Assembly (NCBI GenBank): GCA_964642015.1
Contig: CAZXLF010000002.1
Span: 2,717 to 66,716 of the forward strand
DNA: 64,000 nt
Origin: an uncultured Planctomycetia bacterium
Lineage (GTDB): Bacteria > Omnitrophota > Gorgyraeia > 2-02-FULL-51-18
Reading direction: 5' to 3'
Under the pieces are notes generated by a model. That model was not told the DNA's origin. It did not search any database and worked only from the letters and a program-made list of their open reading frames with translations. Positions 22,998 to 64,000 of this stretch are shown here, in pieces. Made by a program: the position numbers and the translations under genes. The stretch's first letter is position 1. Each line of letters opens with the position of its first letter.

Positions 22998-23076
22998 GGT
23001 GGGCGTAGCTCAGCTTGGTTAGAGCGTCTGACTGTGGCTCAGAAGGTCGCGAGTTCAAATCTCGTCGCCCACCCCA
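22998..23076 (+). tRNA. tRNA-His (GUG) with encoded G-1 and CCA
   Basis: Cloverleaf read by hand. Acceptor gtgggcg/cgcccac, extra 5' G opposite discriminator C, anticodon loop 'ctGTGgc', T-arm gcgagttcaaatctcgt, 3' CCA. Confidence 0.85.
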
Positions 23077-33427: not shown

Positions 33428-33501
33428 GTGCCCATAGCTCAATTGGATAGAGCGCTTCCCTCCGAAGGAAGAGGTTGCTGGTTCAACTCCAGTTGGGCAC
33501 G
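33428..33501 (+). tRNA. tRNA-Arg (CCG); CCA not encoded
   Basis: Acceptor gtgccca/tgggcac, anticodon loop 'ctCCGaa', T-arm gctggttcaactccagt. Confidence 0.75.
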
Positions 33502-37490: not shown

Positions 37491-37564
37491 GCGCCCATAG
37501 CTCAGCCGGATAGAGCGACTGGCTTCGAACCAGTAGGCCGCAGGTTCGAGTCCTGCTGGGCGCA
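37491..37564 (+). tRNA. tRNA-Arg (UCG); CCA not encoded
   Basis: Acceptor gcgccca/tgggcgc, anticodon loop 'ctTCGaa', T-arm gcaggttcgagtcctgc. Confidence 0.75.
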
Positions 37565-37770
37565 TATTTTTTTGTAGGAATTGGCACAGGACTCGAAGAG
37601 AGTGCCAAGTTTATGAACTGCGACGGCTAGGAGCAGTGCCCGCCGCAGAGCGTAGGCGGGTCCGCCAATCAGTTTGGCGGAAATGCGGCGAGTGGCCGAC
37701 CTGAAGCGAACGTAAGTGAGCGGAAGGCGCCGAGTCCTGCTGGGCGCATATTTTTTCGATATAAATCCAG
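37565..37770 (+). repeat. tRNA-trailing element E1. It opens with an inverted copy of the tRNA-Arg T-arm, has a conserved ~100-bp core, and ends with a direct duplicate of the tRNA-Arg 3' end plus T-run.
   Basis: 'caggactcgaagagagtgccaag...gcgagtggccgacctgaagcgaacgtaagtgagcggaaggcgccgagtcctgctgggcgcatatttttt'. The last ~25 nt equal the tRNA 3' end at 37540..37572. Confidence 0.7.
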
Positions 37771-37911
37771 AAATTCATAGATAAAACTAAATAACACTAG
37801 GCATTTCCGATATTTAAGCAGCTTAATTTAAGTTTGTCATAATGACGGTTTTTAGCTAGAATAGCACGTTCATGTAAAGCGGTATTTTTGGATGAGTGCG
37901 GGTCGATTTTT

Positions 37912-37984
<73 letters not shown>

Positions 37985-38122
37985 CGGTTTTTTGGAATAG
38001 CAATAGGGATCGAAGTGAGCCGCACGTTTTTGAGTTGCGATGGTAGGAGCAACGAATGCGGCAAGTGGTCGACCCGAAGCGAAAGCAGAGGGCTCCGATC
38101 CCTGCGCGGCACATAGTTTTTT
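37985..38122 (+). repeat. tRNA-trailing element E2, same family. It starts with an inverted tRNA-Lys T-arm and ends with a diverged duplicate of the tRNA-Lys 3' end.
   Basis: 'agggatcgaagtgagccgcacgtttttgagttgcgatggtaggagcaacgaatgcggcaagtggtcgacccgaagcgaaagcagagggctccgatccctgcgcggcacatagtttttt'. Confidence 0.7.
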
Positions 38123-38140
38123 ATATATGTAAATTTTTCC

Positions 38141-38222
38141 GGGCGGATGGCGAAACTGGCAGACGCGTCAGCCTTAGGAGCTGATGGGGCAACCCTTGGA
38201 GGTTCGAGTCCTCTTCCGCCCA
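38141..38222 (+). tRNA. tRNA-Leu (UAG) with a long variable arm; CCA not encoded
   Basis: Acceptor gggcgga/tccgccc, anticodon loop 'ctTAGga', long variable arm 'tggggcaacccttgg', T-arm ggaggttcgagtcctct. Confidence 0.65.
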
Positions 38223-38268
38223 AGATTTAATGGGTGAGAAAGAGTTAAGGCGACTCTAAAAGATTTCG

Positions 38269-38344
<76 letters not shown>

Positions 38345-45154: not shown

Positions 45155-46300
45155 ATGAGACCGCAAAATTATTTATTCACATCAGAGAGTGTCACAGAAG
45201 GCCATCCGGATAAAGTGGCGGACCAGATCTCGGACGCGGTATTGGACGCGATCTTGGACAAAGATCCCAATGGCCGCGTAGCTTGCGAAACGCTTGTTAC
45301 GACCGGCCTTGTTTTTGTGGCAGGTGAGATCACGACATCTTGTTATGCGGATATCCCGAAGATCGCGCGAAGCACGGTAAAACGGATCGGATATGATGAC
45401 CCTATTTATGGATTTGACTCTGATTCCTGCTCGGTGGTCACCTCTATTCAAGGACAGTCACCGGACATTGCGATGGGTGTGAATGTGGGGGGCGCTGGAG
45501 ATCAAGGGATGATGTTTGGTTATGCGACCAATGAGACGCCGGAGTATATGCCTTTGGCAATTTCATTAGCGCATAAGCTGACCCGTCGCGTTTCAGAGCT
45601 CCGCAAAAGTAAAACACTGCCTTACCTAAGGCCCGACGGAAAATCTCAGGTGACTATTGAGTATAAGAATGAAAGGCCTGCTCGTGTAGATACGGTAGTG
45701 ATCAGTGTCCACCACAGCCCGAAGGCAAAGCTCAAAGAGATCGCATCTGATATGAAGAAACTCGTGATCGAAAAAGTGATCCCTTCCGGTTATCTTGATA
45801 AAAAGACCAAATTTTATATCAATCCTACCGGCCGTTTTGAAGTAGGCGGACCTCAGGCCGATACGGGGCTTACCGGCCGTAAAATTATCGCTGATACTTA
45901 TGGTGGATATGGCGCGCACGGCGGAGGCGCTTTCTCCGGTAAGGATCCCACAAAAGTGGATAGATCTGCGTCTTACATGGCTCGATATATTGCTAAAAAC
46001 ATCGTTGCAGCGAAGCTCGCCGACAAATGCGAGATCCAGATCGCTTATGCGATCGGCATTGCCGAACCTGTTTCGGTAATGGTGAATACCTATAATACAG
46101 GAAAGATCCCTAACGAGGAGATCAGTAAATTGATCTCAAAGCATTTTGACCTCACCCCCGCAGGGATCATCCGTGATCTGAAATTGCGCAGGCCTATTTA
46201 CAGCGCGACCGCTGCCTATGGCCATTTCGGACGCAACGATGAAGGTTTTTCCTGGGAAGAATTGGATAAGGTTTCCGCGCTTCGAAAAGGCATTGCGTAG
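45155..46300 (+). CDS. metK: S-adenosylmethionine synthetase
   Basis: '[25 protein letters not shown]' and '[17 protein letters not shown]'. Confidence 0.9.
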
Positions 46301-46340: not shown

Positions 46341-48696
<2,356 letters not shown>

Positions 48697-51288: not shown

Positions 51289-52308
51289 ATGATTGCAGGC
51301 TATCAAAAAACCGTGAATAAAAAAATCAACTCATTAAATATTTCTATTTTTTTTGGGATCTTTTTTTTATGCGCTACAGTTAGCTACAGCATTGTTTATT
51401 CAAATATTCAGAATTTTTCTTTGTCTCCGGCAATGGGAAATCTGGACACGCAAATTTACCTATCAATGTACAAAGGAGAACCCGTCCAGCGCTATGAAGG
51501 ACGCCGCGTCTTAGTCCCTTTTTTGGCACGGTCCTTGCCTGATTTTCCGCCGTCTTTTTTTGCTAAAGACCACGAATTATCCGGATCATGGACGGCAATA
51601 GTAAAATTCGGAGTCGTTAATTATTTTTTTCTCACAGCCGCGGGAATAGTATTTTTTTACTACTTAAAACAGGCTAAGTTCTCAAATTGGGAATCTGTCG
51701 CCGGATGCCTTTTATTTTATTCGGCAAGGCCTGTGGTCCAGAATGCGGGCCTACCTTTGCCCGATGCGGCTTCGTATTTTTTCTTGGCGATCTGTTTTTA
51801 TTCTATTCAAGTCGAAAATAGATGGCTGCTTTTTGTTGGTTTTTTATTGGGCATTTTTGCGAAAGAATCTGTTTTTTTGGTGATCCCAGCGCTTCTTTTT
51901 TCAGAACATAAGCTTAGATCGAAAATGCTATATGTGCTTATCCCCGGGATTGTAACTTATTCGATTTGTCATTGCGCCATTGTCTTACCCAGACCCAATC
52001 TAACGAATATGCTTTTAGTTTCAGCGCGCTATTTTATTGATACTTTTACTCACGTGAATAGGCTGATAGATCTTTTTTCGTCATTCGGGTTGCTTTGGTT
52101 GCCGGCGTTTTTTTCATTAACATTTCCTGAATTGCCGATAGAGCACCGTCGATGGAAGTGGTTAATTCCATTTATGCTTGCTGTCATTTTTATTTTCAGC
52201 ATGAATCTTGGGCGGATATTATTTGTCGTATTTCCTGTCGTGATCCCGCTGTCATTATTTGGACTGCGCAGGTTTTTGGCAGAAAAAAGTCATGGCTCAA
52301 CGTCATAA
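51289..52308 (+). CDS. Polytopic membrane protein, hypothetical
   Basis: 339 aa with ~9 hydrophobic helices and no recognisable motif. Confidence 0.3.
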   Translation: MIAGYQKTVNKKINSLNISIFFGIFFLCATVSYSIVYSNIQNFSLSPAMGNLDTQIYLSMYKGEPVQRYEGRRVLVPFLARSLPDFPPSFFAKDHELSGSWTAIVKFGVVNYFFLTAAGIVFFYYLKQAKFSNWESVAGCLLFYSARPVVQNAGLPLPDAASYFFLAICFYSIQVENRWLLFVGFLLGIFAKESVFLVIPALLFSEHKLRSKMLYVLIPGIVTYSICHCAIVLPRPNLTNMLLVSARYFIDTFTHVNRLIDLFSSFGLLWLPAFFSLTFPELPIEHRRWKWLIPFMLAVIFIFSMNLGRILFVVFPVVIPLSLFGLRRFLAEKSHGSTS

Positions 52309-52361: not shown

Positions 52362-52658
52362 ATGGATACGAAAGATCTGATCTTTTCAAAAAATCCCAAT
52401 TTTGTCTTCCGCCAGATAGCCGGTGAGTCTTTATTGATCCCGATCCGAAAAAAACTGAATCAAGTGAACAGTCTTTACGTCTTAAATGAGACAGCGGCCG
52501 CTTTTTGGAACCGGTTGGACGGCCAATGCTCCATAAACCGCATTTTGAATGATCTCACGCAGGTATTCGATGTGTCACTCGAGCAACTTGAGCAAGATAC
52601 GTCAGTGTTGGTCCAGGATCTTTTGAGCATCGAGGCTATTCAAGAAGCCATTTCTTAA
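52362..52658 (+). CDS. PqqD-family RiPP recognition element (peptide chaperone)
   Basis: 'FRQIAGESLLIPIRKKLNQVNSLYVLNETAAAFWNRLDGQCSINRILNDLTQVFDVSLEQLEQDTSVLVQDLLSIEAI' is a strong PqqD pattern. Confidence 0.75.
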   Translation: MDTKDLIFSKNPNFVFRQIAGESLLIPIRKKLNQVNSLYVLNETAAAFWNRLDGQCSINRILNDLTQVFDVSLEQLEQDTSVLVQDLLSIEAIQEAIS

Positions 52659-52675: not shown

Positions 52676-53575
52676 ATGGATAAAATAGATCTAAAAATTC
52701 CCAGCCATTATCCACTTCACTGCCAATGGGAAATCACCTGTCGATGCAATTTGCGCTGTGTGATGTGCTACACCGATTGTTTTAATACGCCGCAAAAGAT
52801 CAAAGAAGAGCTGTCTACGGCGGAGATACTTCGGATCATGGGCGAGCTTGCTGAGGCGGGATGTCTTGAGCTGACGCTCACCGGAGGCGAACCTTTCGCA
52901 AGGCCTGATTTTTTTGAGATCTATGATTACGCGAAAGAAAAAGGCTTTCTTATCATCATATTTTCTAACGGAACCTTGATCACTGAAAAGATCGCCGATC
53001 GCTTTGCTATAAATCCGCCCGAGCGCATCGAAATCAGTTTTCACGGTCTTACCGAACGATCCTTTGAAGCGATCACAAAGGGGGCTGGTTCCTACCATAA
53101 ATGCCTGGAAGCGATCCGTTTGCTTCTGGAGCGCCGCATTCCGCTTGTCTTAAAAAGTGTGGCGATGACGGTCAACAAGGATGAAGTTCTGGCGATCAAG
53201 AAATTCTCTAAAGAGCTGGGGCCTGTGGTTTATCATCTCGGCGAAGAAATACGGATGGCCATCGACGGAGGTGAAGCGCCTTTTCAATATCAGCTTTCCG
53301 AGCAAGAACTTGAAACGATCCACCGGCAGGATCCGGCTATTTGGAAAGAGGCTTGTTGCAAAAAAGAGTCTCCTGTACCTGTTTGTCAAAGCGCGAGGCA
53401 AAATTTTCACATTGATGCCTATGGGCAGCTTCAACGCTGTTCGGGTAACCGCTTGGCGAGCTATGACCTGCGCTCAGGCTCATTCAAAGAAGGTTTTTAT
53501 CGATTTCTTCAAGATTTTCCTTGTCCGGCAAAGTGCAATGAAGCGGTAAAAACGGAAATTTATGGGTTGTTATGA
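52676..53575 (+). CDS. Radical SAM enzyme with a C-terminal Cys-rich SPASM/twitch-like domain (rSAM-1)
   Basis: 'CQWEITCRCNLRCVMCYTD' carries the CX3CX2C motif. The C-terminal Cys run is 'CCKKESPVPVCQSA...RCSGN...CPAKC'. Confidence 0.75.
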   Translation: MDKIDLKIPSHYPLHCQWEITCRCNLRCVMCYTDCFNTPQKIKEELSTAEILRIMGELAEAGCLELTLTGGEPFARPDFFEIYDYAKEKGFLIIIFSNGTLITEKIADRFAINPPERIEISFHGLTERSFEAITKGAGSYHKCLEAIRLLLERRIPLVLKSVAMTVNKDEVLAIKKFSKELGPVVYHLGEEIRMAIDGGEAPFQYQLSEQELETIHRQDPAIWKEACCKKESPVPVCQSARQNFHIDAYGQLQRCSGNRLASYDLRSGSFKEGFYRFLQDFPCPAKCNEAVKTEIYGLL

Positions 53576-54693
53576 TCTTAAATCCGAATAAGATCTCCAA
53601 AATGGAATATGGTGATTTTAGTCTTAACATTCATGAGAAGGCCGGCACAGAATGCGTGATCAAAGCGCAGATGGAACTTACTTACCGCTGCAATCTCCAT
53701 TGCCGTCATTGTTATACCGACCCTTTCAATCGTAAGGAGTATTTCCCTAAAGAAATGGAATTGGCGGAGGTTAAAAGGATTCTTGATGAAATGGCGGCGT
53801 TGGGGATCTTATGGCTTAACTTCACCGGCGGCGAAGCGTTGATGAGAAAGGATTTCTTTGAGATCTATGATTACGCGTGGGCTAAAGGTTTTATTTTGAC
53901 GCTTTATACCAACGGCACCATGATCACTGAATCGGTGATCAACAAATTAAAAGATAAACCGCCGTTTTTTATCGATGTCTCATGTCACTCGATAACCGAA
54001 GAGAGTTTTGATTGGTTTACGCAAGTCAAAGGGTCGTTTCGTCATTTTCTCAAGAGCATGGAACTCTTGAAAGCGAGCGGCTTGCCTTTCCGGATGAAAA
54101 CGATCGGGATGAATTGGAACAAGAAAGAGCTGCCGTACATAAAGGAATATGTCGAATCTTTTGGGATTTCCTTTCATCCAACCACAGCTCTTTATCCAAG
54201 ATTAACCGGCGATCTTGAGCCTTTGAAATTGAGGCTTTCTCCTGAGGAAGCGGTCGATCTGCAGGTTGGATCAGAGGTATTTCAGGAAGATGAATGTCTT
54301 GACTCAGACTCTGTTTACAGCACTATTCCAAACCGACTTTATCGCTGTACTTGCGCGACTAATGCGATCCATATCAACGCATGGGCGGAACTTGGCACCT
54401 GCGGGTTGGAATATGAGGCCAGAGCTTCTCTTCGAGAATATTCTTTAAAGGAGGCTATCTCACAGGTTTTTGAGAAAGTTCGCTCGCTCAGGTTTGAAAC
54501 AAACACACCTTGCCGGGATTGTTCGCTATTCTCATTTTGCAACAAAAAGCCGACCTCTGCGCGTTGGGAATTCAAAGACCCCCAGAGGGCGAATCCTTAT
54601 GAATGTGATGTAGCTTTTTTAAAAGCGTCGCGGTTAACAGGTAAAACACAAATGCACCCGTTAAAAAAAGAGGAGAGTGGCTATGCCGGATAA
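53572..54693 (+). CDS. Radical SAM enzyme with a SPASM-like C-terminal domain (rSAM-2)
   Basis: 'YRCNLHCRHCYTD', and C-terminal 'CTCATNA...GTCG...CRDCSLFSFC'. It is paralogous to rSAM-1 ('FFEIYDYA..KGF...ysNGT.IT'). Confidence 0.75.
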   Translation: MILNPNKISKMEYGDFSLNIHEKAGTECVIKAQMELTYRCNLHCRHCYTDPFNRKEYFPKEMELAEVKRILDEMAALGILWLNFTGGEALMRKDFFEIYDYAWAKGFILTLYTNGTMITESVINKLKDKPPFFIDVSCHSITEESFDWFTQVKGSFRHFLKSMELLKASGLPFRMKTIGMNWNKKELPYIKEYVESFGISFHPTTALYPRLTGDLEPLKLRLSPEEAVDLQVGSEVFQEDECLDSDSVYSTIPNRLYRCTCATNAIHINAWAELGTCGLEYEARASLREYSLKEAISQVFEKVRSLRFETNTPCRDCSLFSFCNKKPTSARWEFKDPQRANPYECDVAFLKASRLTGKTQMHPLKKEESGYAG

Positions 54694-54865
54694 AAAGAAG
54701 TACATTACGCCTCAAATATTTGAGGTCCCGTTAAGGCAAGAACAGGCTGTGCTTACTAGTTGCAATACTAATTGGTCCAATTCTACATCCGGCGGAAATG
54801 GCAAGTGCACCAGCGGTGGATGTAAAAATGGAGGAGGGACCAATAATGCAAACCCTCCATCTTAA
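54683..54865 (+). CDS. Candidate RiPP precursor peptide, 60 aa: MPDKKKYITPQIFEVPLRQEQAVLTSCNTNWSNSTSGGNGKCTSGGCKNGGGTNNANPPS
   Basis: A Shine–Dalgarno 'aggagag' lies 7 nt upstream of the ATG (an alternative GTG is at 54677). The charged/hydrophobic leader is followed by a Gly/Ser/Thr/Asn-rich core with 3 Cys, 1 Trp and 2 Lys. The gene sits between rSAM-2 and the kinase. Confidence 0.7.
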   Translation: MPDKKKYITPQIFEVPLRQEQAVLTSCNTNWSNSTSGGNGKCTSGGCKNGGGTNNANPPS

Positions 54866-54889: not shown

Positions 54890-55783
54890 ATGCTGATTTC
54901 ATTGGGGATTGGCGGCTATAAAGTTTCAATAGAAGAGCCTAGAGATCGTTTCTGCTTTTTTTGGCCTCTTGCTAGATTTGAACCATTTCTTTCTAATGAA
55001 ACAGCGAATTCAGATATCACTGTTAAAGTCCATATCGTTAAAAAACTAGCAGTGCTTAATAATGAAAATTTGATCTTTGATTCCGGAATAGGTTATTGGA
55101 AACTTTATGATAATGGGCCTAAGGGTTATTTATTTGAAAGTTGCCGTGCAGAGAATGGCCGGCTTTTTTTGCAAGCGGCCATATCGCATGATCTTTCAGA
55201 GGTTGAAGTGACCGTCAAAGAAACCCGCATGAAAGGTAGTGCGCGCGGCGGTTGGGGGCCTGCCACTATTATCAGTCCGCTTCTCGAATTTGTGCTTCAG
55301 GAGAAACTTGCTAGAGATGGCGGCGTGATGCTTCACAGCTCCGCAATATTGGCAGAAAATGAAGTGCTTGTTTTTTTTGGCCCTTCCGGTGCCGGTAAAT
55401 CAACAGCGGCAAATTTTTTTCTGAATAAAGGATATACAGTTCTCAATGATGAGCGCGTGATCATCCGGCGGGAAGGCGACGAGTTTAAAGCATATGGTAC
55501 TCCATGGCCCGGTTCAAGTTTTCTTTATTCGGGTGCACAGGGTCGAATGAGACAGATTTTTAAAATCGGCCATGGGCAGGGAAAGCATATGTTAAATAAA
55601 ATGTCGACCAGAGTAATGATGGCCACTTTATTTCAAGAGGCCTACTTGCCCCATTGGACCGTGATGGGAATGGATAAAACAACTCGTTTTTTTGAGGAAC
55701 TGGCAACTACTTTTGGTTCTCTTGAACTTTTATTTTGTAAATCTTCGGATATCGTTGACTTCCTAACAGAAATTTTTTTTTAA
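54890..55783 (+). CDS. HprK-related P-loop kinase (HPr kinase C-terminal-domain-like)
   Basis: 'VLVFFGPSGAGKSTAANFF' Walker A. Its size and context match 7961..9028. Confidence 0.55.
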   Translation: MLISLGIGGYKVSIEEPRDRFCFFWPLARFEPFLSNETANSDITVKVHIVKKLAVLNNENLIFDSGIGYWKLYDNGPKGYLFESCRAENGRLFLQAAISHDLSEVEVTVKETRMKGSARGGWGPATIISPLLEFVLQEKLARDGGVMLHSSAILAENEVLVFFGPSGAGKSTAANFFLNKGYTVLNDERVIIRREGDEFKAYGTPWPGSSFLYSGAQGRMRQIFKIGHGQGKHMLNKMSTRVMMATLFQEAYLPHWTVMGMDKTTRFFEELATTFGSLELLFCKSSDIVDFLTEIFF

Positions 55784-55796
55784 TGCGAGTCATTTA

Positions 55797-56843
55797 ATGA
55801 AAATTTTAAACGAGAATATTCTCTATCAATCCGTCGCTTTAGGTTCAAAGACCGAAAAGATACCTTCAAAAGTTTTATTTGAGTTAACTTATGGCTGCAA
55901 TTTCCGCTGCGTACATTGTTATAATCCCACACATCAGGCGCGGCCTGAAGAGCTTTCAACAAAAGAAATACATCGAATCTTAAATGAAATTGCAGACTTG
56001 GGTGTTTTATCTATCATTTTTACAGGCGGGGAATTATTTACACGTCCTGATATTTTAGAAATTCTCGAGCATGCCAAGCGATTAGGGCTTTTAATCGACA
56101 TTTTTACCAATGCGAGCCTGTTAACAGACTTGATCGTTAAAAGGCTTGATGAATTAGGGATCCGCGACATGGTCGTTTCGATTTATGGAACGACTCCGTC
56201 CACATTTGAAAAGGTCACTCGTCAAGCGAACTCTTATGAGCGTTTCTTGCGTGGAATCGTGGCGCTTGCAAAATCCTCTTTGAATGTCCACATTCGAATT
56301 CCTCTATTAACTTTGAATAAACATGAAGCCGAGACCGCCAAACTGTTTGTCGAAAGTATGGGATTTCCGTTTCGCTTTTATCTTGAAATTGAGCCTCGCC
56401 AAGATGGTAATCAAGAACCGTTGCAGTACAATCTTAATGCGGGTGAAAAAATGGATATTTTAAAAAGATTACGTCCAGAGGCTTTGGAAAAACCTCCTTT
56501 TGAAGAAAAGCAATTTTCAACGGATTTTATTGAATGCGCTTGCGGTAAGGAACAGTTCGCAGTGACTCCCTACGGAAAAATGAACTTTTGCGTTTCTTTT
56601 CCAACACCGAATTATGACTTGCGCTGCGGTACCGTCAAAGAAGGCTGGCAAATACTTCAGAAATTGGTCCGAGAAGCTAAACCCAATGAAAATTATCATT
56701 GTCCTGGCTGTGACGTCCGGTCGTTTTGCCAGCAAGGTCGTAGCGATGCCTGGCTCGAAACAGGCGACATGAGCGTATGCCTCCCACGTTTTAAAGAAGC
56801 CGCCACTCTTCATAAGACAGCGGTCATTCATAAGACGATCTGA
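55797..56843 (+). CDS. Radical SAM enzyme with a SPASM-like C-terminal domain (rSAM-3)
   Basis: 'YGCNFRCVHCYNP', and C-terminal 'CACGKEQ...CVSF...RCGT...CPGCDVRSFCQ'. Confidence 0.75.
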   Translation: MKILNENILYQSVALGSKTEKIPSKVLFELTYGCNFRCVHCYNPTHQARPEELSTKEIHRILNEIADLGVLSIIFTGGELFTRPDILEILEHAKRLGLLIDIFTNASLLTDLIVKRLDELGIRDMVVSIYGTTPSTFEKVTRQANSYERFLRGIVALAKSSLNVHIRIPLLTLNKHEAETAKLFVESMGFPFRFYLEIEPRQDGNQEPLQYNLNAGEKMDILKRLRPEALEKPPFEEKQFSTDFIECACGKEQFAVTPYGKMNFCVSFPTPNYDLRCGTVKEGWQILQKLVREAKPNENYHCPGCDVRSFCQQGRSDAWLETGDMSVCLPRFKEAATLHKTAVIHKTI

Positions 56844-56955: not shown

Positions 56956-57777
56956 ATGATCAATCTGTTACAATCCACGGAATCAGATGGAAGATTTTCC
57001 TTGCAAGAAATAATACAAACAGAGGATTCCGATCTGTCGCTTACTTTTAAGACGGCTGGTTGGAGCATGTTTCCTACGTTAAGGAACAATGACTGCATTG
57101 AGCTTTCGAGAATCCAAGATTACGAAGTAGGAGATCTTGTTGTTTTTCGTCAAAATAACAGGTTAATTTGCCACCGCATCTCAGAGATTCATTTGAATGG
57201 CCGGATACGGACGAGTAGTATCGGAGGTGAACATTTCATTCGGCAAAACGATATTTTGGGCAAAGTCAATTCGATCATTCGAGGCAAAAACCATTTTTGT
57301 CCTTCGAAAACCCAGAAAAAACTACAACTATTCGATCGTTTTTGGATCCATTTGAATATAAATTTAGAAACTATTCAGAATAAGTGTCGTGAATTAATGT
57401 TTGATGTATTTGTTTTGATCAACCGGATCCTGATCTTTAATCAGATCATTTTATTTTTTATGAATAAAAACGTTCACTATTCGATCGGTTCTAAAGCTCA
57501 GGTTGGTCCATTGGATTGCTACCGATTGATTCCTGTTCAGAAAAAGCTCACGCAAGGTTCGATGATTGCGTTAAAGGAAAGTCTAAAAAATGGTAAAGAC
57601 TGTTCAATCCTTGTCGCGCAATTGGCAGGACGTTATGCGGCGACTTTTGAATTTGCTTCAGGCAAAGTATGGCTTCATGACCGTCTAAAAATTACGAATT
57701 TCAAAGCAGAGATTTCACGCTTTGCAGAAAAACTGTGTCACGAATTGAAAGGATATTGTGAACTTAGCGGTGATTGA
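56956..57777 (+). CDS. S24/S26-type serine peptidase domain (signal-peptidase-I/LexA-like) fused to a ~180-aa uncharacterised C-terminal domain; candidate leader peptidase
   Basis: 'TAGWSMFPTLRNNDCIELSRIQDYEVGDLVVF' matches the G-x-SM-x-PTL catalytic-Ser box of S26/S24 peptidases. Confidence 0.5.
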   Translation: MINLLQSTESDGRFSLQEIIQTEDSDLSLTFKTAGWSMFPTLRNNDCIELSRIQDYEVGDLVVFRQNNRLICHRISEIHLNGRIRTSSIGGEHFIRQNDILGKVNSIIRGKNHFCPSKTQKKLQLFDRFWIHLNINLETIQNKCRELMFDVFVLINRILIFNQIILFFMNKNVHYSIGSKAQVGPLDCYRLIPVQKKLTQGSMIALKESLKNGKDCSILVAQLAGRYAATFEFASGKVWLHDRLKITNFKAEISRFAEKLCHELKGYCELSGD

Positions 57778-58558
57778 AGCAACAAATCTAACAAAAACCT
57801 ACTCAGCCGGCACGGGATTATTGGACTGGCTTTTTCGGAATTCATCTATGAAGCCAAAAACAACGGCTCTCAACGGTGTAAATTTACGCATCGAGAAAGG
57901 CGAAATCATCACTTTGCTTGGGCCTAACGGCGCAGGCAAAACGACCCTCATAAAAATTTTAGCCGGTCTTATGACTCCGGACAGTGGTAACGTTAATATT
58001 TGCGGTTTTGACACGGTCAAAGATCTTGCGAAAACTAAACAGTGCGTGAGTCTAGTGCTGGGTGAAGAGAAGAGTTTTTACTGGCGGCTTACAGGACGTC
58101 AAAATCTCGAGTTTTTTGGAATTCTTTACAATCTTTCAAGAGATCGCATCCGCCAAAAGATCAAACAGGCGGCCGAGCTTCTTGACCTCGATCTGGACAA
58201 ACGCTACCAGGAATGTTCGACGGGTATGAAATTTCGTCTGGCGCTGGCGCGTGGATTTTTGAGCGATGCAAAATTGATCCTGATGGATGAACCGACTAGA
58301 AGTTTGGATCCTAATGTAGCAAACCGGCTGAGGGAATTGATCAAAACAATGCGTAACGAGAAAGGATGCGCGTTTTTTTTCGCCACACACGATGTCCATG
58401 AGGCCGAAACGGTCGCCGATAGGATTGTAATCTTGGATCAGGGAAAGATCAGGGCAAGCGGAAGATTGAGCGATCTAAGAAATATTTTAGGGAACAATGA
58501 GGCATCAGTGGAAGATATCTTTCAGCGTGTGACCATCGAGGATCAGTATGTTTTTTAG
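57758..58558 (+). CDS. ABC transporter ATP-binding protein
   Basis: Walker A 'GPNGAGKTT', Q-loop, signature-like 'CSTGMKFRLALARG', Walker B 'ILMDEPT'. Confidence 0.8.
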   Translation: MNLAVIEATNLTKTYSAGTGLLDWLFRNSSMKPKTTALNGVNLRIEKGEIITLLGPNGAGKTTLIKILAGLMTPDSGNVNICGFDTVKDLAKTKQCVSLVLGEEKSFYWRLTGRQNLEFFGILYNLSRDRIRQKIKQAAELLDLDLDKRYQECSTGMKFRLALARGFLSDAKLILMDEPTRSLDPNVANRLRELIKTMRNEKGCAFFFATHDVHEAETVADRIVILDQGKIRASGRLSDLRNILGNNEASVEDIFQRVTIEDQYVF

Positions 58559-59357
58559 AAAATTTTTTGCGATCATATACCGCGATGCGCTCGAAGCATT
58601 AAGTTACAAAACCGCATTTTTTACCGATTTATTAGCGATGACAGCACAGCTCTTGATCTTCTTTTTTGTGGGGCGCATGATCGGGCCGCAGGCAGCCCCG
58701 TTTCTTAGTGAATATGGCGGTGAGTATTTTCCATTCGTGCTTATTGGTATTGCTGTCGCAGGGTTTTGTATGGCCGGTACGAACAGCTTCACTGGTACGA
58801 TCATGAAGGAGCAGGGCGACGGAACGCTTGAGGCCATTTTTGTGACCCCGACCTCTCTTGGTGTATTCATGTTCACGGGATTTATTCGGACATTCGTTTC
58901 AAGCTCCTGTCGGGTATTTGTGTTTTTATTGATGGGGTTGTTATTTTTTAAGATACGTTTACCTATGGTTAACATCCCGGTTTTCTTGCTTCTTCTGGTC
59001 TTGTCGATGGTCGTTTTTGGAAGTTTTGGGCTTTTTTCAGGAGGAGCATTGCTCGTGCTTAAAAGAGGTGATCCTTTCACGCATTTGTTCAATGCCGCTT
59101 CTCGTTTTCTTGCAGGCGTTTATTTTCCTGTTACGCTTCTGCCGCTGTGGCTTCAAAAGGTTTCTTTATGGATGCCGATGACCTATGCGCTTCAGGCGAT
59201 AAGAAAGGCGGTTCTAATCGGTGCCTCTGTTCATGATCTGCAGGCGGAGATGATCACACTGGCGCTTTTTTCGGCCGTTTTATTTTTTTGCGGCATAGCT
59301 TTTTTTAACTGGTGTTTTGAGAAAGCTCGAAAGGAAGGATCCCTTGCTTTCCGCTAA
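58548..59357 (+). CDS. ABC-2 type transporter permease
   Basis: 269 aa with six TM helices. Its start overlaps the ATPase gene end. Confidence 0.65.
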   Translation: MFFRKFFAIIYRDALEALSYKTAFFTDLLAMTAQLLIFFFVGRMIGPQAAPFLSEYGGEYFPFVLIGIAVAGFCMAGTNSFTGTIMKEQGDGTLEAIFVTPTSLGVFMFTGFIRTFVSSSCRVFVFLLMGLLFFKIRLPMVNIPVFLLLLVLSMVVFGSFGLFSGGALLVLKRGDPFTHLFNAASRFLAGVYFPVTLLPLWLQKVSLWMPMTYALQAIRKAVLIGASVHDLQAEMITLALFSAVLFFCGIAFFNWCFEKARKEGSLAFR

Positions 59358-60285
59358 ACCATTTTTGGAAGAAACTTTTTCCACGAACCACTTGGATTAC
59401 GAACGTGTGCTTACCCGAAACCGCAGGAGGCTTGATTTCCTTTTGGAGCTCGAAAGCGATCTAGCGATGGAGAACGTTGATCTTTTACCTTTAAAAGGGA
59501 TGGATCTTTTAATACGCGCTTATCCCTCGCTGGGAATGCGCCCGATGACTGATATTGATCTCCTCATCCATAAAAAAGACATCCCAAAAGTGAAGCGGTT
59601 GCTGGAGCATAAAGATCTGCAATGGTCCGCTGATGAGAACCTTAGCTACTATGACCCCAATTCTTTTATCATTTTAGATATCGTTTGGAATGTCTGGTAC
59701 ATGCCGGACTCGCGGCCGGTTTGGCAGCGTTCATCGCTTTATGCGACAAATGAAGGCAAAGCATTAAAATTGATGCATTCCGAAGATGCTTTGACCTATT
59801 TGATCGCTTATACGATAGCGCATCGCACAGAAATAAATTCTATTTTTTTACAAGACCTCAAATTTTTTTTGGATAAAGAATCCCATAAAATTGATTGGGA
59901 CCACTGGGCTTCAACAGTGAAAAACCTTCACTTAGGCCCAACAGTTTTTTATGGGTTGTCTTACGTCAGAAAAAGTGGGCTCGAAAGCATTCCGGAAGAA
60001 ATAGTTTGTAAACTTCGTCCAACCTCCTATGCGGAAAAAAAATTAAATTTTTATTATCAAAATGTTTTGGAACTAAAAAAAAAGCCGGCGAATTATTTGC
60101 GGACTTGGCTAAGTTATCCGGGATGGAGAGGTAAAATAAAGCTATTACGTATTAAATTTTTGCCTTCCAAATGGCAATTTGAATTGCGTTTTGGACGAAA
60201 AAGCTGGTTAAAATACCTGATTTTTTGCTTCGCCCATCCTTTCTGTGTATTATTCCGTGCCCTCACTGGCCCTTTTATTGAATAA
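59317..60285 (+). CDS. Nucleotidyltransferase family protein, PF14907-like
   Basis: 'VDLLPLKGMDLLIRAYPSLGMRPMTDIDLLIHKKDIPKV' carries the same motif as 4421..5572 and 10261..11358. Confidence 0.55.
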   Translation: MRKLERKDPLLSAKPFLEETFSTNHLDYERVLTRNRRRLDFLLELESDLAMENVDLLPLKGMDLLIRAYPSLGMRPMTDIDLLIHKKDIPKVKRLLEHKDLQWSADENLSYYDPNSFIILDIVWNVWYMPDSRPVWQRSSLYATNEGKALKLMHSEDALTYLIAYTIAHRTEINSIFLQDLKFFLDKESHKIDWDHWASTVKNLHLGPTVFYGLSYVRKSGLESIPEEIVCKLRPTSYAEKKLNFYYQNVLELKKKPANYLRTWLSYPGWRGKIKLLRIKFLPSKWQFELRFGRKSWLKYLIFCFAHPFCVLFRALTGPFIE

Positions 60286-60726: not shown

Positions 60727-62085
60727 ATGCTGATTAGCGCTCGAACGAAGGGGATGATTGTCCCGTTCTTAAACTCATTTTTTATTTTAGGTATTACGAT
60801 AGCTTATGCAGCTGATATGCAATCCGGAATTCAATCCAATAGCGGACAAAATTTTGCTACAATACAGAATGCAGAGAAATATACAATCCAACCGCAGGAT
60901 AAACTTAATATTCAAGTGGCAGGAGAAAATGACTTGTGCGGAGTTTTTGTCGTAGGTCCTCAAGGGGATATTAACTACCCGCTTTTGGGAGCCGTTTATA
61001 TTCAGGGGCTTTCTTTGGGAGAGGTGAAGGATTTTTTGACAGATAGTCTCGGCAAGAAGTATTTGGTGAATCCGCGGGTACAGGTCACATTCTCTGAAAT
61101 GCCTCAACGTTCGATATCAGAAAAATCTTTGCCCGCAAGCGTTCCTACAGTCCCATCTATTCAAGATGTGTTAGCCAAAGTTCAAAATACAAAATCGGAT
61201 AACTCACAAGATTTGAAATCAGAGATCATGAGCATGATAACCCCATCTCCAGCAACCAAAGCAGAGTCTTTGATGAATTATAGCGACGCTGGAGCAACTA
61301 GTTTTGATAGCGATATTATCGACACGGGGGACAAATTGAACATTCAAGTTTATAAAGAGCCTGATCTCTCCGGCGTTTTCAGCGTGAACTCTTCAGGTAA
61401 GATCAATTATCCGTTGCTCGGTGAGGTTTATGCTCAATCGCTTTCGCTAGAAGAACTCAAACAGTTCCTTTATGACAAATTGAATGAAAAATATGTTACA
61501 AATCCTCAAATTGAGATTACGATCACAGAAAGCTCTACTAAATCTGTTTCGATGCTTGGTCAGATCAACAAGCCGGGCAATTATATTTTGACACATCACC
61601 TTACGCTTTTAAAATTGATCTCTCAGAACGGGGGCTTTACTCCTGATGCGTCGACTAAAAATGTCCGTATTGTCAGAACCAATGGTGACGGAAAAAAAGA
61701 GACTTTGGAAGTTGACGTTGATAAGGTAATTCAAGGACTAGCCGATGATGTGATCCTGAGATCAGGGGACATTATATTTGTGGATTTCAGGAGTAAGGAA
61801 GAAGTTAAGAAAGAAGTTGCAAAGAATTATATTACCCTCTTAGGGCAGGTAGCAAAGCCGGGGAATTATTTCTATAGCCCAAAGTTGACGTTGATCCGCC
61901 TGATCGGCGAAGCCGGAGGTTTTTCACCTTCAGCTGCGACTAACAGAATAAAGATCGTACGCAATGGTAAAGATGGTAAGCAGCAGATTTTATTTGTGGA
62001 TGCCGGGCGGATCATGGGCGGCGGTGTGAAGGATCTTGAGGTGGAAGAAGGGGATCTTATTATTGTGCCTGAATCTTATTTTTAA
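60727..62085 (+). CDS. Polysaccharide export protein, Wza-like, with duplicated Poly_export/SLBB modules
   Basis: Signal peptide, then two 'PDY.L.pGD.L.I.V'-like blocks ('YTIQPQDKLNIQVAGENDL', 'IDTGDKLNIQVYKEPDL') and SLBB-like 'GDIIFV'/'GDLIIVPESYF'. Confidence 0.6.
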   Translation: MLISARTKGMIVPFLNSFFILGITIAYAADMQSGIQSNSGQNFATIQNAEKYTIQPQDKLNIQVAGENDLCGVFVVGPQGDINYPLLGAVYIQGLSLGEVKDFLTDSLGKKYLVNPRVQVTFSEMPQRSISEKSLPASVPTVPSIQDVLAKVQNTKSDNSQDLKSEIMSMITPSPATKAESLMNYSDAGATSFDSDIIDTGDKLNIQVYKEPDLSGVFSVNSSGKINYPLLGEVYAQSLSLEELKQFLYDKLNEKYVTNPQIEITITESSTKSVSMLGQINKPGNYILTHHLTLLKLISQNGGFTPDASTKNVRIVRTNGDGKKETLEVDVDKVIQGLADDVILRSGDIIFVDFRSKEEVKKEVAKNYITLLGQVAKPGNYFYSPKLTLIRLIGEAGGFSPSAATNRIKIVRNGKDGKQQILFVDAGRIMGGGVKDLEVEEGDLIIVPESYF

Positions 62086-62093
62086 GAATCGAT

Positions 62094-63914
62094 ATGCCAG
62101 ATAATGATGAATTAGCCAAGAATTCTGCAATCATGATGTCGGATGAGATGCCGTCCAATGATTGGTTGGAGTATTGGTACGTTTTTTTGGCACACGCATG
62201 GATCATCGGAGCTATTACGACGGTTTTTTTTATCGTATCGGCTTTCCATTTTTTTAGTCTGCCTAATCTTTATACGGCTACGACCACGATCTTAGCTTAC
62301 CCGGCCGATAACCCTATCCAGCAATCATCCCATCAAGATGTCCAAACGCCTACGTATGGCCAAGAGGAGGAATATTACGGCACACAATTGGCTATTCTGA
62401 CCGGTATGGAAGTCGAAGAAGAGGCCATCAAAGAGCTTGGAGGCAACGTAGCCGATTATACGGTCAATGCCGAGCATGTGCATGACACAAGGATCCTATC
62501 GTTATCCGTGACCCATCGCGATCCTGAGGTCGCTGCCAAAGTAGCTAATAAGTTCGCCGAGGTCTTTGTGAGGGAAAGTAAGCGTGAAGGCGCATTCATC
62601 GGACAGCAGATTTTAAAATTCCTGCCAGATGATCAGAAAGTCTCAAATCCGAATCCTGTTTTGCAAGCCGGGGGCGCATCGGGAGATAATCTGTCTGGGT
62701 TCAGTAAGCAGGAATTTGCTTCATCGTTAGTGAATGTCTCCAATGACCCTCAGATCCAGCAGCTTAGAAGTGAAAAGCTAGGGATTCTTTCAAAGTTGAC
62801 CGAATTATCACAGCGATACAAATCCGAACATCCGATAATTCTCGATTTAAATCAGCGTCTGGGTATTATTGAAAATGAGATCAAGGCAAGGACCGAAACC
62901 ATATTGAGCAATGTTAAGGCGAACCTTGCTGGCGAGACGAACGTGACGAACATTAAGGTATTGCAGGAAGCCCGCGTTCCGTCAGGCCCCTCTCAGCCCA
63001 ATCGTTTTAAAGGCATTCTTTTATGGACGCTCGGAGGGTTTTTTATCAGTACTTTTTTTGTGTTTCTATTCGAGTTTTCTAACCAAAAGATACGCGATGA
63101 ACATGACGCGACAGCCATGGGTCTGACTTTTTTAGGTTACATCCCCTTGACTAAGGATTTCTTAGTTAGACGCCGAACTAGTGGCTATCATCCAGAAGAT
63201 GTGGATCTGATCAAAGTGCTTAAATCCAATTCTACTTTAGCTGATTCAGTCGCTAATGCGCGCACACATATCCTTTTTTCGATGCCTTATGAAAAGTCGC
63301 GACGCATCATGTTGACAAGCGCTATACCTGGTGAAGGTAAATCAACGCTTGCAGCGCTACTAGCTATTTCGTTGACCACTTTGGGAAGGAATATCTTGTT
63401 GATTGATGCGGATCTAAGAAAGCCTTCTCTGCACAGGTATTTGGGTTTTAGAAATGAAAAAGGATTGACCGATTATCTTGTTGGAACAGCTACGCTGGAT
63501 GAGGTCGTTCAATCTTTGAAAGGTAATTCTTTACAAATGATCACAGCGGGGTCCATATCCCCTAATCCCTCAGAACTATTATCTTCCGAAAGGTTTCGTG
63601 AGCTTTTGGATAAATGCGGAGAACGATTTGATAGGGTCGTCATCGATGTTCCTCCGGTACTGTATATTCCCGATGGGCTTATTGTTGCCAAAGTCGTTCA
63701 TACGGGCATTTTGATCTGTGGAGCCGGTATGGTGCATAAGAGAACTATTCAGCAGGTAAAAGAAAAATTTGATTCAGTAGGTTACTCATTTATCGGCACG
63801 ATCATTAACCGTGCCGATTTTGACAGACAAGCTTATCGCTATAAGTACTATGGTAATTATAAGAGTTATTACAATACCGCGCGTCAGCAACCGATTGTTA
63901 TTCAGCATCGTTGA
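62094..63914 (+). CDS. Polysaccharide co-polymerase / BY-kinase (Wzc/ExoP-like), with a Wzz domain, a Walker ATPase and a Tyr-rich C-terminal tail
   Basis: Two TMs flank a periplasmic domain. Walker A is 'AIPGEGKSTLAALLA', and there is a DxD motif. The C-terminal tail is 'YRYKYYGNYKSYY'. Confidence 0.6.
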   Translation: MPDNDELAKNSAIMMSDEMPSNDWLEYWYVFLAHAWIIGAITTVFFIVSAFHFFSLPNLYTATTTILAYPADNPIQQSSHQDVQTPTYGQEEEYYGTQLAILTGMEVEEEAIKELGGNVADYTVNAEHVHDTRILSLSVTHRDPEVAAKVANKFAEVFVRESKREGAFIGQQILKFLPDDQKVSNPNPVLQAGGASGDNLSGFSKQEFASSLVNVSNDPQIQQLRSEKLGILSKLTELSQRYKSEHPIILDLNQRLGIIENEIKARTETILSNVKANLAGETNVTNIKVLQEARVPSGPSQPNRFKGILLWTLGGFFISTFFVFLFEFSNQKIRDEHDATAMGLTFLGYIPLTKDFLVRRRTSGYHPEDVDLIKVLKSNSTLADSVANARTHILFSMPYEKSRRIMLTSAIPGEGKSTLAALLAISLTTLGRNILLIDADLRKPSLHRYLGFRNEKGLTDYLVGTATLDEVVQSLKGNSLQMITAGSISPNPSELLSSERFRELLDKCGERFDRVVIDVPPVLYIPDGLIVAKVVHTGILICGAGMVHKRTIQQVKEKFDSVGYSFIGTIINRADFDRQAYRYKYYGNYKSYYNTARQQPIVIQHR

Positions 63915-64000
63915 AGAATGATCCGTTTTATGCGGAGGAAATAATGTTTAAAAACGAGATTAAGATGAGTTCGATCGTTCATTGCAGTCCGGATCAAGTG

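Follow-up and report, generated by a model that had tools for sequence, protein, structure and literature searches.

A small three-cysteine peptide as candidate precursor of a conserved radical SAM cassette with a lasso-type kinase homologue in uncultured bacteria

A small gene under selection in a conserved cassette

The DNA analyzed here (the window) is a stretch of 64,000 nucleotides (nt) of contig CAZXLF010000002.1 from an uncultured Planctomycetia bacterium, with a GC content of 44%. On its + strand, a gene coding for a peptide of 60 residues (54683-54865) is embedded in a cassette encoding a PqqD-family protein, three radical S-adenosylmethionine enzymes (rSAM1, rSAM2 and rSAM3), a kinase-like protein of the ScmC family, a PF14907 nucleotidyltransferase and a S24/S26-like peptidase. 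On the basis of translation, homologue alignments, dN/dS ratios and synteny, we consider with a probability of about 0.75 that this open reading frame (ORF) codes for the A peptide, or precursor, of a conserved cassette of the RiPP type (peptides synthesized by the ribosome and modified post-translationally).

Translation from the ATG at 54683 to the TAA at 54863-54865 gives exactly MPDKKKYITPQIFEVPLRQEQAVLTSCNTNWSNSTSGGNGKCTSGGCKNGGGTNNANPPS (60 residues), the ORF and translation announced in a preliminary description of this DNA. The Shine-Dalgarno motif AGAGGAGA (54669-54676, + strand), read directly in the sequence, is separated from the ATG by 6 nt, and the identical motif precedes the peptide gene in the two closest homologues (loci L003 and L007). 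The start of the peptide ORF overlaps the end of the rSAM2 gene (53572-54693; TAA at 54691-54693), so that both the strong Shine-Dalgarno and the overlap with the rSAM2 stop, as previously described, were seen. In the mechanical list of ORFs the frame begins at a GTG (54677; 62 aa), whereas the conserved start is the ATG at 54683. The scan of the cassette for promoters and terminators yielded counts at chance level. Since the 20-kb neighbourhood contains 122 ORFs of at least 40 aa, ORF length alone is no evidence for a gene, and conservation is the evidence to be considered.

A direct search returned two homologues sharing 71% and 61% identity with the window peptide; they come from independent metagenomic contigs, and the two genes that flank the peptide gene are those seen in the window. 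More distant homologues of the ScmC-like gene that follows it led to three more loci, from a Nitrospiraceae metagenome-assembled genome (MAG; L013), an Omnitrophica MAG (L014) and a 1-Mb contig (L015). A small ORF occupies the equivalent position in each of them, that of L014 being uncalled in the source record. A profile built from six peptides matched 44 clusters, and when metagenomes were scanned with an alignment of 35 sequences, 106 matches were confirmed, of which 80 loci were retained. Finally, an exhaustive hidden Markov model search of 1.84 billion representatives retrieved 323 clusters (50% identity) at E ≤ 1e-3, 98 of them at E ≤ 1e-10. No Pfam or NCBIfam model matched the window peptide.

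The signature of the family was counted in 82 unique complete precursors from the fetched loci and, separately, in 134 full-length representatives. A YxxPx[LIV] motif is present in 81 of the 82 precursors within a leader of consensus KKxYxxPx[IL]..V.L...QA[IV]L, and the peptide ends with a Ser in 81/82 precursors and 126/134 representatives. The core is variable and composed of Gly, Ser, Thr and Asn; throughout it only three Cys and the terminal Ser are conserved. Exactly three Cys were counted in 118/134 representatives, the Cys number ranging from 2 to 7 across the precursors. In the window peptide, the leader corresponds approximately to residues 1-26 (54683-54760), with Y7xxP10xI12 and Q21-A22, and the core to residues 27-60 (54761-54862), with Cys27, Cys42, Cys47 and the C-terminal Ser60. 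This boundary is approximate, and conservation in the family continues through Cys27 and the following residue, which is Ser in 73 of the 82 family members and Asn in the window peptide. The window peptide is a member of a small, divergent subgroup whose leader is FEVPLRQEQAVLT and in which the terminal Ser is retained. The composition previously given for the core was correct for its three Cys, one Trp and two Lys; its Gly content is 23.5% (8/34) and not 29%, and Trp is not its sole hydrophobic residue, one Ala and two Pro being also present beside eight Asn (8/34).

In the comparison of the window with L003 and L007, the leader shows a pS of 0.70-0.74, with synonymous sites near saturation, and a pN of 0.12, corresponding to a dN/dS of about 0.05. 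The family-wide median dN/dS is 0.32, with 0.21 for the leader and 0.60 for the core. Because of its conserved position, its conserved Shine-Dalgarno, the dN/dS of about 0.05 in its leader and its hundreds of homologues, the peptide ORF is a genuine coding gene under selection. The conserved leader and the variable core, both under purifying selection, together with the position of this short ORF beside modifying enzymes in about 35 syntenic loci, bear out the preliminary description of a leader followed by a core. The conservation check that it had recommended gave the same picture, the ORF, its leader and its Cys being kept in these loci.

Some family precursors were found as orphans (L051, L057, L063, L073, L075 and L094), with no cassette enzymes within about 9 kb where the flank was available. 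Their neighbours in L051 and L073 are unrelated genes coding for a LuxR-type regulator, adhesin E, an epoxide hydrolase and a HD protein.

Organization of the cassette and the presumed leader-binding protein

Synteny was analyzed by comparing every ORF of the fetched loci with the window proteins by phmmer. Flanks long enough for a judgement were available in about 35 loci, and there the genes are arranged in the order PqqD, rSAM1, rSAM2, peptide (1-3 copies), ScmC-like protein, rSAM3, PF14907 nucleotidyltransferase and S24/S26-like peptidase, an order also found in the Nitrospiraceae (L013) and Omnitrophica (L014) MAG loci and in L015. In a distant subgroup (L102, 463-5647) the order is permuted to PqqD, rSAM, rSAM, ScmC, peptide, rSAM, and three rSAMs are retained. 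Two or three tandem paralogous precursors occur in single loci (L022/L023, L032, L034, L036, L056 and L068/L071). In L036 and in the short contigs L035 and L039, 3-Cys and 5-Cys paralogues adjoin each other, L036 having one set of three rSAMs. A simpler cassette was observed in L100 (4248-8479; Pseudomonadota MAG GCA_043825735.1), which encodes PqqD, one rSAM, a 62-aa ORF, a 328-aa protein of unknown kind, ScmC and a S24-like protein. The 62-aa product, MTDRDDGKKDKRSYETPVLRIIELAAEEVLAVGCKTQAVGTAGFGNGKAVCTFPRQCYGAGS, displays YxxPxL, three Cys and a C-terminal Ser.

The PqqD-family gene (52362-52658, + strand; PF05402, E = 3e-13), which heads the cassette in nearly all syntenic loci, encodes the presumed leader-binding RiPP recognition element (RRE) and has a weak full-length match to the NCBIfam model lasso_PqqD_Bac. 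The motif conserved in the leaders of lasso systems is YxxPxL (PMC10368454). The presence of a PqqD-family protein beside precursors carrying YxxPx[LIV] is consistent with a recognition element and its matching leader motif, and this protein would quite probably bind the lasso-like YxxPx[IL] leader and present the peptide to the modifying enzymes.

The ScmC-like protein and the terminal serine

The gene following the peptide (54890-55783, + strand) codes for a P-loop protein of the ScmC family (PF27840), a membership given by precomputed matches for the window protein and 60+ homologues. Sequence searches of the Protein Data Bank (PDB) with this protein gave generic P-loop matches only, HprK appearing at E values of about 0.1-0.5; therefore a fold search and profile-profile comparison were used. 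For the AlphaFold2 model (predicted local distance difference test, 90.8), the top PDB matches found by Foldseek were only HPr kinase/phosphatase and ATP-PEPCK. The family profile was aligned by hhalign with BsfK, a characterised lasso-precursor kinase (PMC10368454), with a probability of 97.9 and an E value of 5e-13 over 233 columns, and BLASTP gave 46% identity with BsfK over the catalytic core. The hhalign probabilities were 96.6 for a kinase from a Paracoccus lasso cluster and 96.8 for one from a Butyrivibrio lasso cluster. The Paracoccus cluster was detected by tblastn against plasmids (a "serine kinase" match), and its precursor has a YxxPxL leader and a C-terminal Ser. Residues H149, G164, G167, G169, K170, S171, D187 and E188 of the window protein, conserved in 51 orthologues, fall on the BsfK motif H148-G163-G166-G168-K169-S170-D186-D187, whose eight residues have been validated by mutation (PMC10368454); at the last position the window protein has E188 where BsfK has D187. 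Both the alignments and the modelled fold place the ScmC-like protein among the homologues of lasso-precursor kinases, and its catalytic motif is intact.

On lasso precursors, HprK-type kinases transfer phosphate to the C-terminal Ser and require little else of the sequence (PMC8498205), and four lasso kinases, PadeK, ThcoK, SyanK and PsmK, act on this residue (PMC8498205, PMC6993621, PMC10368454). By analogy with these four enzymes, the ScmC-like protein may well phosphorylate a hydroxyl of the precursor, most probably that of Ser60, the chances of such a step being about even. The C-terminal Ser is the best-conserved hydroxyl of the precursor (81/82 and 126/134), and it is kept both in the divergent subgroup of the window and in the one-rSAM cassette L100. 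The earlier suggestion that a Ser/Thr-rich core would be the substrate of the adjacent kinase or nucleotidyltransferase holds in so far as the adjacent protein is a kinase homologue, but the conserved hydroxyl is the C-terminal Ser and not the core generally.

The strongest alternative concerns this very step. The ScmC-like protein could act on other Ser or Thr residues or serve as an ATP-dependent scaffold or chaperone, the terminal Ser being then a recognition element or a site of decarboxylation or cyclisation. BsfK phosphorylates Ser3 of its core, and its activity is strongly enhanced by the PqqD-type RRE BsfB1 (PMC10368454); the site of phosphorylation is hence not fixed in this kinase family. 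Besides, a Butyrivibrio member of the ScmC family adjoins a peptide ending in Trp, the Ser found after the first Cys in most family members is a second conserved hydroxyl, and the second acidic residue of the catalytic motif is Glu and not Asp. On the other side, the terminal Ser is the hydroxyl best conserved and exactly the target of the four characterised lasso kinases, and a PF14907 partner co-occurs with the kinase, as in pseudomycoidin-type clusters. We regard a different role of the ScmC-like protein as a serious possibility that falls short of even odds, and phosphorylation of Ser60 is kept in the scheme proposed below.

The PF14907 (NTP_transf_5) nucleotidyltransferase is encoded at 59317-60285 (+ strand; E = 7e-27), its start being uncertain (59344 in the source record), and D79xD81 is conserved in 29 orthologues. 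In the genuine lasso cluster of a Butyrivibrio plasmid, a PF14907 enzyme and a HprK-type kinase are found together. In L013 (8930-10705) the PF14907 nucleotidyltransferase is fused to a S24-like peptidase (592 aa). A tblastn search of plasmids with the window PF14907 protein gave no match. In the case of pseudomycoidin, the NTP transferase PsmN is needed for the addition of hexose to the phosphate of the lasso peptide (PMC6993621). By analogy with PsmN-dependent hexosylation, it is conceivable, if rather doubtful, that the PF14907 enzyme adds a further group to a phosphate carried by Ser60.

Other loci with ScmC-family or kinase-like proteins were met in these searches. A cluster without rSAM on a Butyrivibrio fibrisolvens plasmid (NZ_CP146964.1; L098, 6935-8958, and L104) encodes a full-length ScmC-family protein, PqqD, a S24/S26 peptidase and, in a 57-aa ORF, a Cys-rich product whose last residue is Trp. 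This cluster adjoins the genuine lasso cluster, composed of B2, the HprK-type kinase, Asn synthase and PF14907. On a plasmid of Streptomyces sp. NBC_01456 (NZ_CP109456.1; L097, 146099-149422), a distant kinase-like homologue annotated as hypothetical lies by a rSAM protein, a methyltransferase, a phosphotransferase and a F420 ligase. The scan of genome contigs with the kinase alignment gave five distant, uninformative loci among the matches listed.

The three radical SAM enzymes and the cysteines

The three rSAM genes lie on the + strand. The rSAM1 protein (52676-53575; 299 aa; PF04055, E = 7e-25) has a reduced, twitch-like C-terminal set of Cys, and in 40 orthologues the conservation of C24x3C28x2C31, C255 and C283 is 95% or higher. 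In rSAM2 (53572-54693; 373 aa; PF04055, E = 1e-22), C40x3C44x2C47 and the eight Cys of a SPASM-like C-terminal domain are conserved in 52 orthologues. In rSAM3 (55797-56843; 348 aa; PF04055, E = 9e-25), which also has a SPASM-like C-terminal domain, C34x3C38x2C41 and seven C-terminal Cys are conserved in 37 orthologues. The Pfam SPASM model did not match any of the three at E ≤ 0.01, the SPASM/twitch assignment being made by motif and relatives. The NCBIfam equivalog cut-offs were reached by none of them, the top partial matches being NirJ/AhbD/PqqE/MftC-like; rSAM2 has a weak full-length match to the mycofactocin maturase, far under the cut-off. The nearest solved relatives are the peptide-modifying enzymes SkfB, PqqE and CteB, rSAM1 being closest to SkfB and PqqE and rSAM3 to PqqE, SkfB and CteB.

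The three enzymes are mutual paralogues, with 27-36% identity over nearly their full length, and they are equally close to the single rSAM of L099 and L100. This paralogy suggests that one type of chemistry is applied at several sites. Some modification of the precursor core by these rSAMs is very probable. In the proposed scheme they act on or around Cys27, Cys42 and Cys47, where intramolecular thioether bridges of the sactionine or ranthionine type would be the most probable products; the formation of such bridges is a balanced proposition.

The preliminary description had matched three Cys with three rSAMs. Three Cys are indeed the dominant number, and three-rSAM cassettes recur in the distant subgroup, but the same three rSAMs also accompany 4-, 5- and 7-Cys precursors, sometimes in one locus with 3-Cys ones (e.g. 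L036), and the one-rSAM cassette L100 encodes a 3-Cys, Ser-terminated peptide. A strict rule of one Cys per rSAM was rejected on these grounds.

The peptide could also be a RiPP precursor on which the rSAMs catalyze reactions other than Cys thioether formation, such as epimerisation, C-methylation, C-C or C-O crosslinking or conversion of Cys to formylglycine, the Cys having then another role in disulfides or metal binding. The absence of a conserved acceptor residue in the core speaks for this explanation, as do the 2 to 7 Cys found with a constant enzyme set, the scores of the enzymes far below the sactipeptide and ranthipeptide equivalog cut-offs and the reduced auxiliary Cys set of rSAM1. 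The conservation of nothing but three Cys and the terminal Ser throughout an otherwise variable core speaks against it. Moreover, conserved Cys, SPASM/twitch rSAMs and a RRE form the classical configuration of sactipeptides and ranthipeptides, and the nearest solved relatives include SkfB and CteB. Chemistry of another kind is possible and seems rather unlikely to us, thioether bridges at the Cys remaining the preferred proposal.

Peptidase, transporter and neighbouring genes

The S24/S26-like, signal-peptidase-like protein (56956-57777, + strand; PF00717, E = 1e-5; NCBIfam archaeal-type signal peptidase I, E = 2e-6, below cut-off) is a candidate leader peptidase, and a homologue follows the cassette in most loci. 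Alignment of 5 full-length orthologues shows conserved S37-M-x-P40 and H73-R74, a pattern which we take, together with a partial TIGR02228 match, to be that of archaeal/Sec11/SipW-type signal peptidases. Downstream genes on the + strand encode a DrrA-like ATPase of an ABC transporter (57758-58558; PF00005, E = 7e-27; TIGR01188, E = 2e-59) and an ABC-2 type permease (58548-59357; PF01061, E = 9e-13), the presumed exporter, whose association with the cassette is limited to the window, L003 and L014. Removal of the leader by the signal-peptidase-like protein and export of the product by the ABC-2 transporter could reasonably complete the pathway, with neither better nor worse than even prospects.

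The gene immediately upstream of that for PqqD (51289-52308) codes for a multi-pass membrane protein of 339 aa that matches no Pfam model and is cassette-associated only in the locus of the window genome. Genes for a SAM synthetase and a S-adenosylhomocysteine hydrolase (45155-46300 and 46356-47612) lie about 5 kb upstream of the cassette; they are not beside the cassette in other loci and this vicinity may be a coincidence. A second PqqD-family gene (PF05402, E = 1e-18) begins in the last 57 bases of the window (63944-64000) and continues at 19262-19558 of L001. It is preceded by polysaccharide export genes, Wza-like (60727-62085) and Wzz/Wzc-like (62094-63914), and followed by a gene with no Pfam match; it may be part of another peptide-modification system. 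The only Rfam matches in the window are six tRNA genes (22999-23073, 33428-33501 and 37491-38341), four of them clustered at 37.5-38.3 kb.

Proposed pathway and weighing of the alternatives

Taken together, these steps would outline a new RiPP class, of which the peptide family would supply the founding sequences and in which a peptide would be crosslinked at three Cys by three subfunctionalised paralogous rSAMs, would carry on its C-terminal Ser a phosphate or possibly a phospho-glycosyl group put there by the lasso-type kinase and the PF14907 enzyme, and would be released from its leader by a signal-peptidase-like protein. This complete scheme is put forward tentatively, as somewhat less likely than not, and several observations weigh against the pathway. 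The Cys number does not track the rSAM number, the core offers no conserved acceptor residue, and the argument for thioether bridges at Cys27, Cys42 and Cys47 is drawn from the conserved Cys and the class of the enzymes. Concerning the phosphate, the Ser3 specificity of BsfK and the Trp-terminated Butyrivibrio peptide have been mentioned above, and the subgroup of the window is without the C-terminal DSGxRxS (D-S-G-x-R-[PA]-S) motif of the family. The S24/S26-like assignment is weak, as it lies below the NCBIfam cut-offs and concerns 5 aligned full-length orthologues. Lastly, the family is known from genes alone, every member having been found in metagenomes or in MAGs of uncultured organisms.

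The peptide could instead, like PqqA or MftA, provide the scaffold from which a redox cofactor is made, and not be a secreted or bioactive product. The cassette does combine PqqD with PqqE/MftC-like rSAM-SPASM enzymes, rSAM2 aligning weakly over its full length with the mycofactocin maturase, and the invariant C-terminal residue is reminiscent of MftA. This is nevertheless improbable because the core is hypervariable (dN/dS 0.60), with varying loop lengths and Cys numbers, because two or three divergent paralogous precursors occur per locus and orphan copies elsewhere, and because the cassette contains an ABC-2 exporter. The presence of a signal-peptidase-like protein and the lack of cofactor-dependent dehydrogenases nearby point in the same direction.

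The streptide/darobactin-like C-C or C-O-C crosslink at the core Trp and/or Lys, which the preliminary description had raised and for which the one Trp and two Lys of the window peptide could speak, is refuted by non-conservation: Trp makes up 0.1% of the core residues of the family and is missing in the two closest homologues (P0002 and P0003), and K and R replace each other freely at the conserved basic position that follows a later Cys. That the ORF is a chance open frame between the rSAM2 and ScmC-like genes, for which one could invoke the many random ORFs of such length in the window and the lack of a Pfam or NCBIfam match, is refuted by its conserved position and Shine-Dalgarno, by the leader dN/dS of about 0.05 at saturated synonymous sites and by the hundreds of homologues.

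No description of this cassette or peptide family was found in the literature searched. As a precursor, the peptide would be a defined substrate for an unstudied cassette, in a large family, of the size given above, with no curated model. The module formed by a lasso-type kinase and PF14907 appears to work outside lasso peptides, beside radical SAM chemistry. The producers are uncultured environmental lineages, Nitrospiraceae and Omnitrophica MAGs among them, and hardly anything is known of the natural products of such lineages. The cassette opens the questions of which paralogous rSAM acts where, whether RiPPs are generally tailored by phosphorylation of a C-terminal Ser, and what role the ScmC family plays. 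The cassette is widespread in uncultured Nitrospirota, Omnitrophota and related lineages. If the new-class scheme is true, it would give access to the orphan ScmC/SynChlorMet-type cassettes, for which no substrate is annotated, and would represent an evolutionary hybrid between lasso-type leader, RRE and tailoring logic and chemistry of the sactipeptide/ranthipeptide type.

Comparison with known systems

The closest database entity is SynChlorMet (ScmC TIGR04249, ScmD TIGR04248, ScmE TIGR04250 and ScmF TIGR04251), which shares with the window cassette a PqqD-like protein, PqqE-like rSAM/SPASM enzymes and a ScmC-family P-loop protein. The cut-offs of these models are not reached, with 18.6 bits against 125 for ScmC, 24.2 against 100 for ScmD, 92.4 against 400 for ScmE and 76.7 against 400 for ScmF (range for ScmE/F, 56-92); none of 30 family members reached the ScmC cut-off. 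In contrast to SynChlorMet, the window cassette has three rSAMs and not two, a PF14907 enzyme, a S24/S26-like peptidase and a clearly identifiable precursor. To our knowledge, the notes of the SynChlorMet models identify no precursor.

With the phosphorylated and phosphoglycosylated lasso peptides (paeninodin, PadeK; pseudomycoidin, PsmK/PsmN; BsfK/BsfB1/BsfN), the cassette has in common a YxxPxL-type leader, a discrete PqqD-family RRE corresponding to the B1 protein, a homologous HprK-type kinase sharing the catalytic motif, a PF14907-type nucleotidyltransferase and a terminal Ser. The lasso precursor in L096 (MVKTYSRPVLRV..LEAMT) and BsfA (..IYKKPQL..LAAII) both resemble the leader of the window family, and the nucleotidyltransferase-peptidase fusion of L013 parallels the nucleotidyltransferase-B2 protease fusions of lasso clusters. 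Unlike lasso systems, the cassette has three rSAMs and a signal-peptidase-like protein instead of a cyclase and B2, and conserved Cys instead of the Gly/Ala1...Asp/Glu7-9 ring motif. No lasso cyclase (Asn-synthase homologue) was found among the cassette ORFs or in the syntenic loci, and a transglutaminase-type B2 protease is absent from the cassette, in which the only peptidase-like gene is the S24/S26-like one. An assignment to the lasso systems was rejected because both the cyclase and the B2 protease are missing.

With PQQ and mycofactocin (PqqA/D/E and MftA/B/C), the common elements are a chaperone of the PqqD family, an enzyme of the rSAM-SPASM type and a small peptide whose C-terminal region is critical. 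The window system differs by its hypervariable core, multiple paralogous precursors, exporter, kinase and nucleotidyltransferase, and its enzymes are far below the PqqE and MftC cut-offs.

With sactipeptides and ranthipeptides (SkfA/SkfB and CteA/CteB), it shares a short Cys-containing precursor, a RRE and rSAMs with SPASM/twitch auxiliary clusters, the conserved Cys sets of rSAM1-3 comprising both the CX3CX2C motif and the SPASM/twitch-like Cys. The curated maturase models remained unmatched (StsB, at most 96 bits against 625; AlbA, 59 against 850; SkfB, 57-59 against 300). The differences lie in three paralogous maturases and not one, in a RRE which is a separate protein and not an N-terminal domain, in the additional kinase and nucleotidyltransferase, and in the thioether bonds, which are putative here. 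We place the system among the radical SAM RiPPs, and what is new is the combination of a lasso-type kinase/nucleotidyltransferase tailoring with three paralogous rSAMs.

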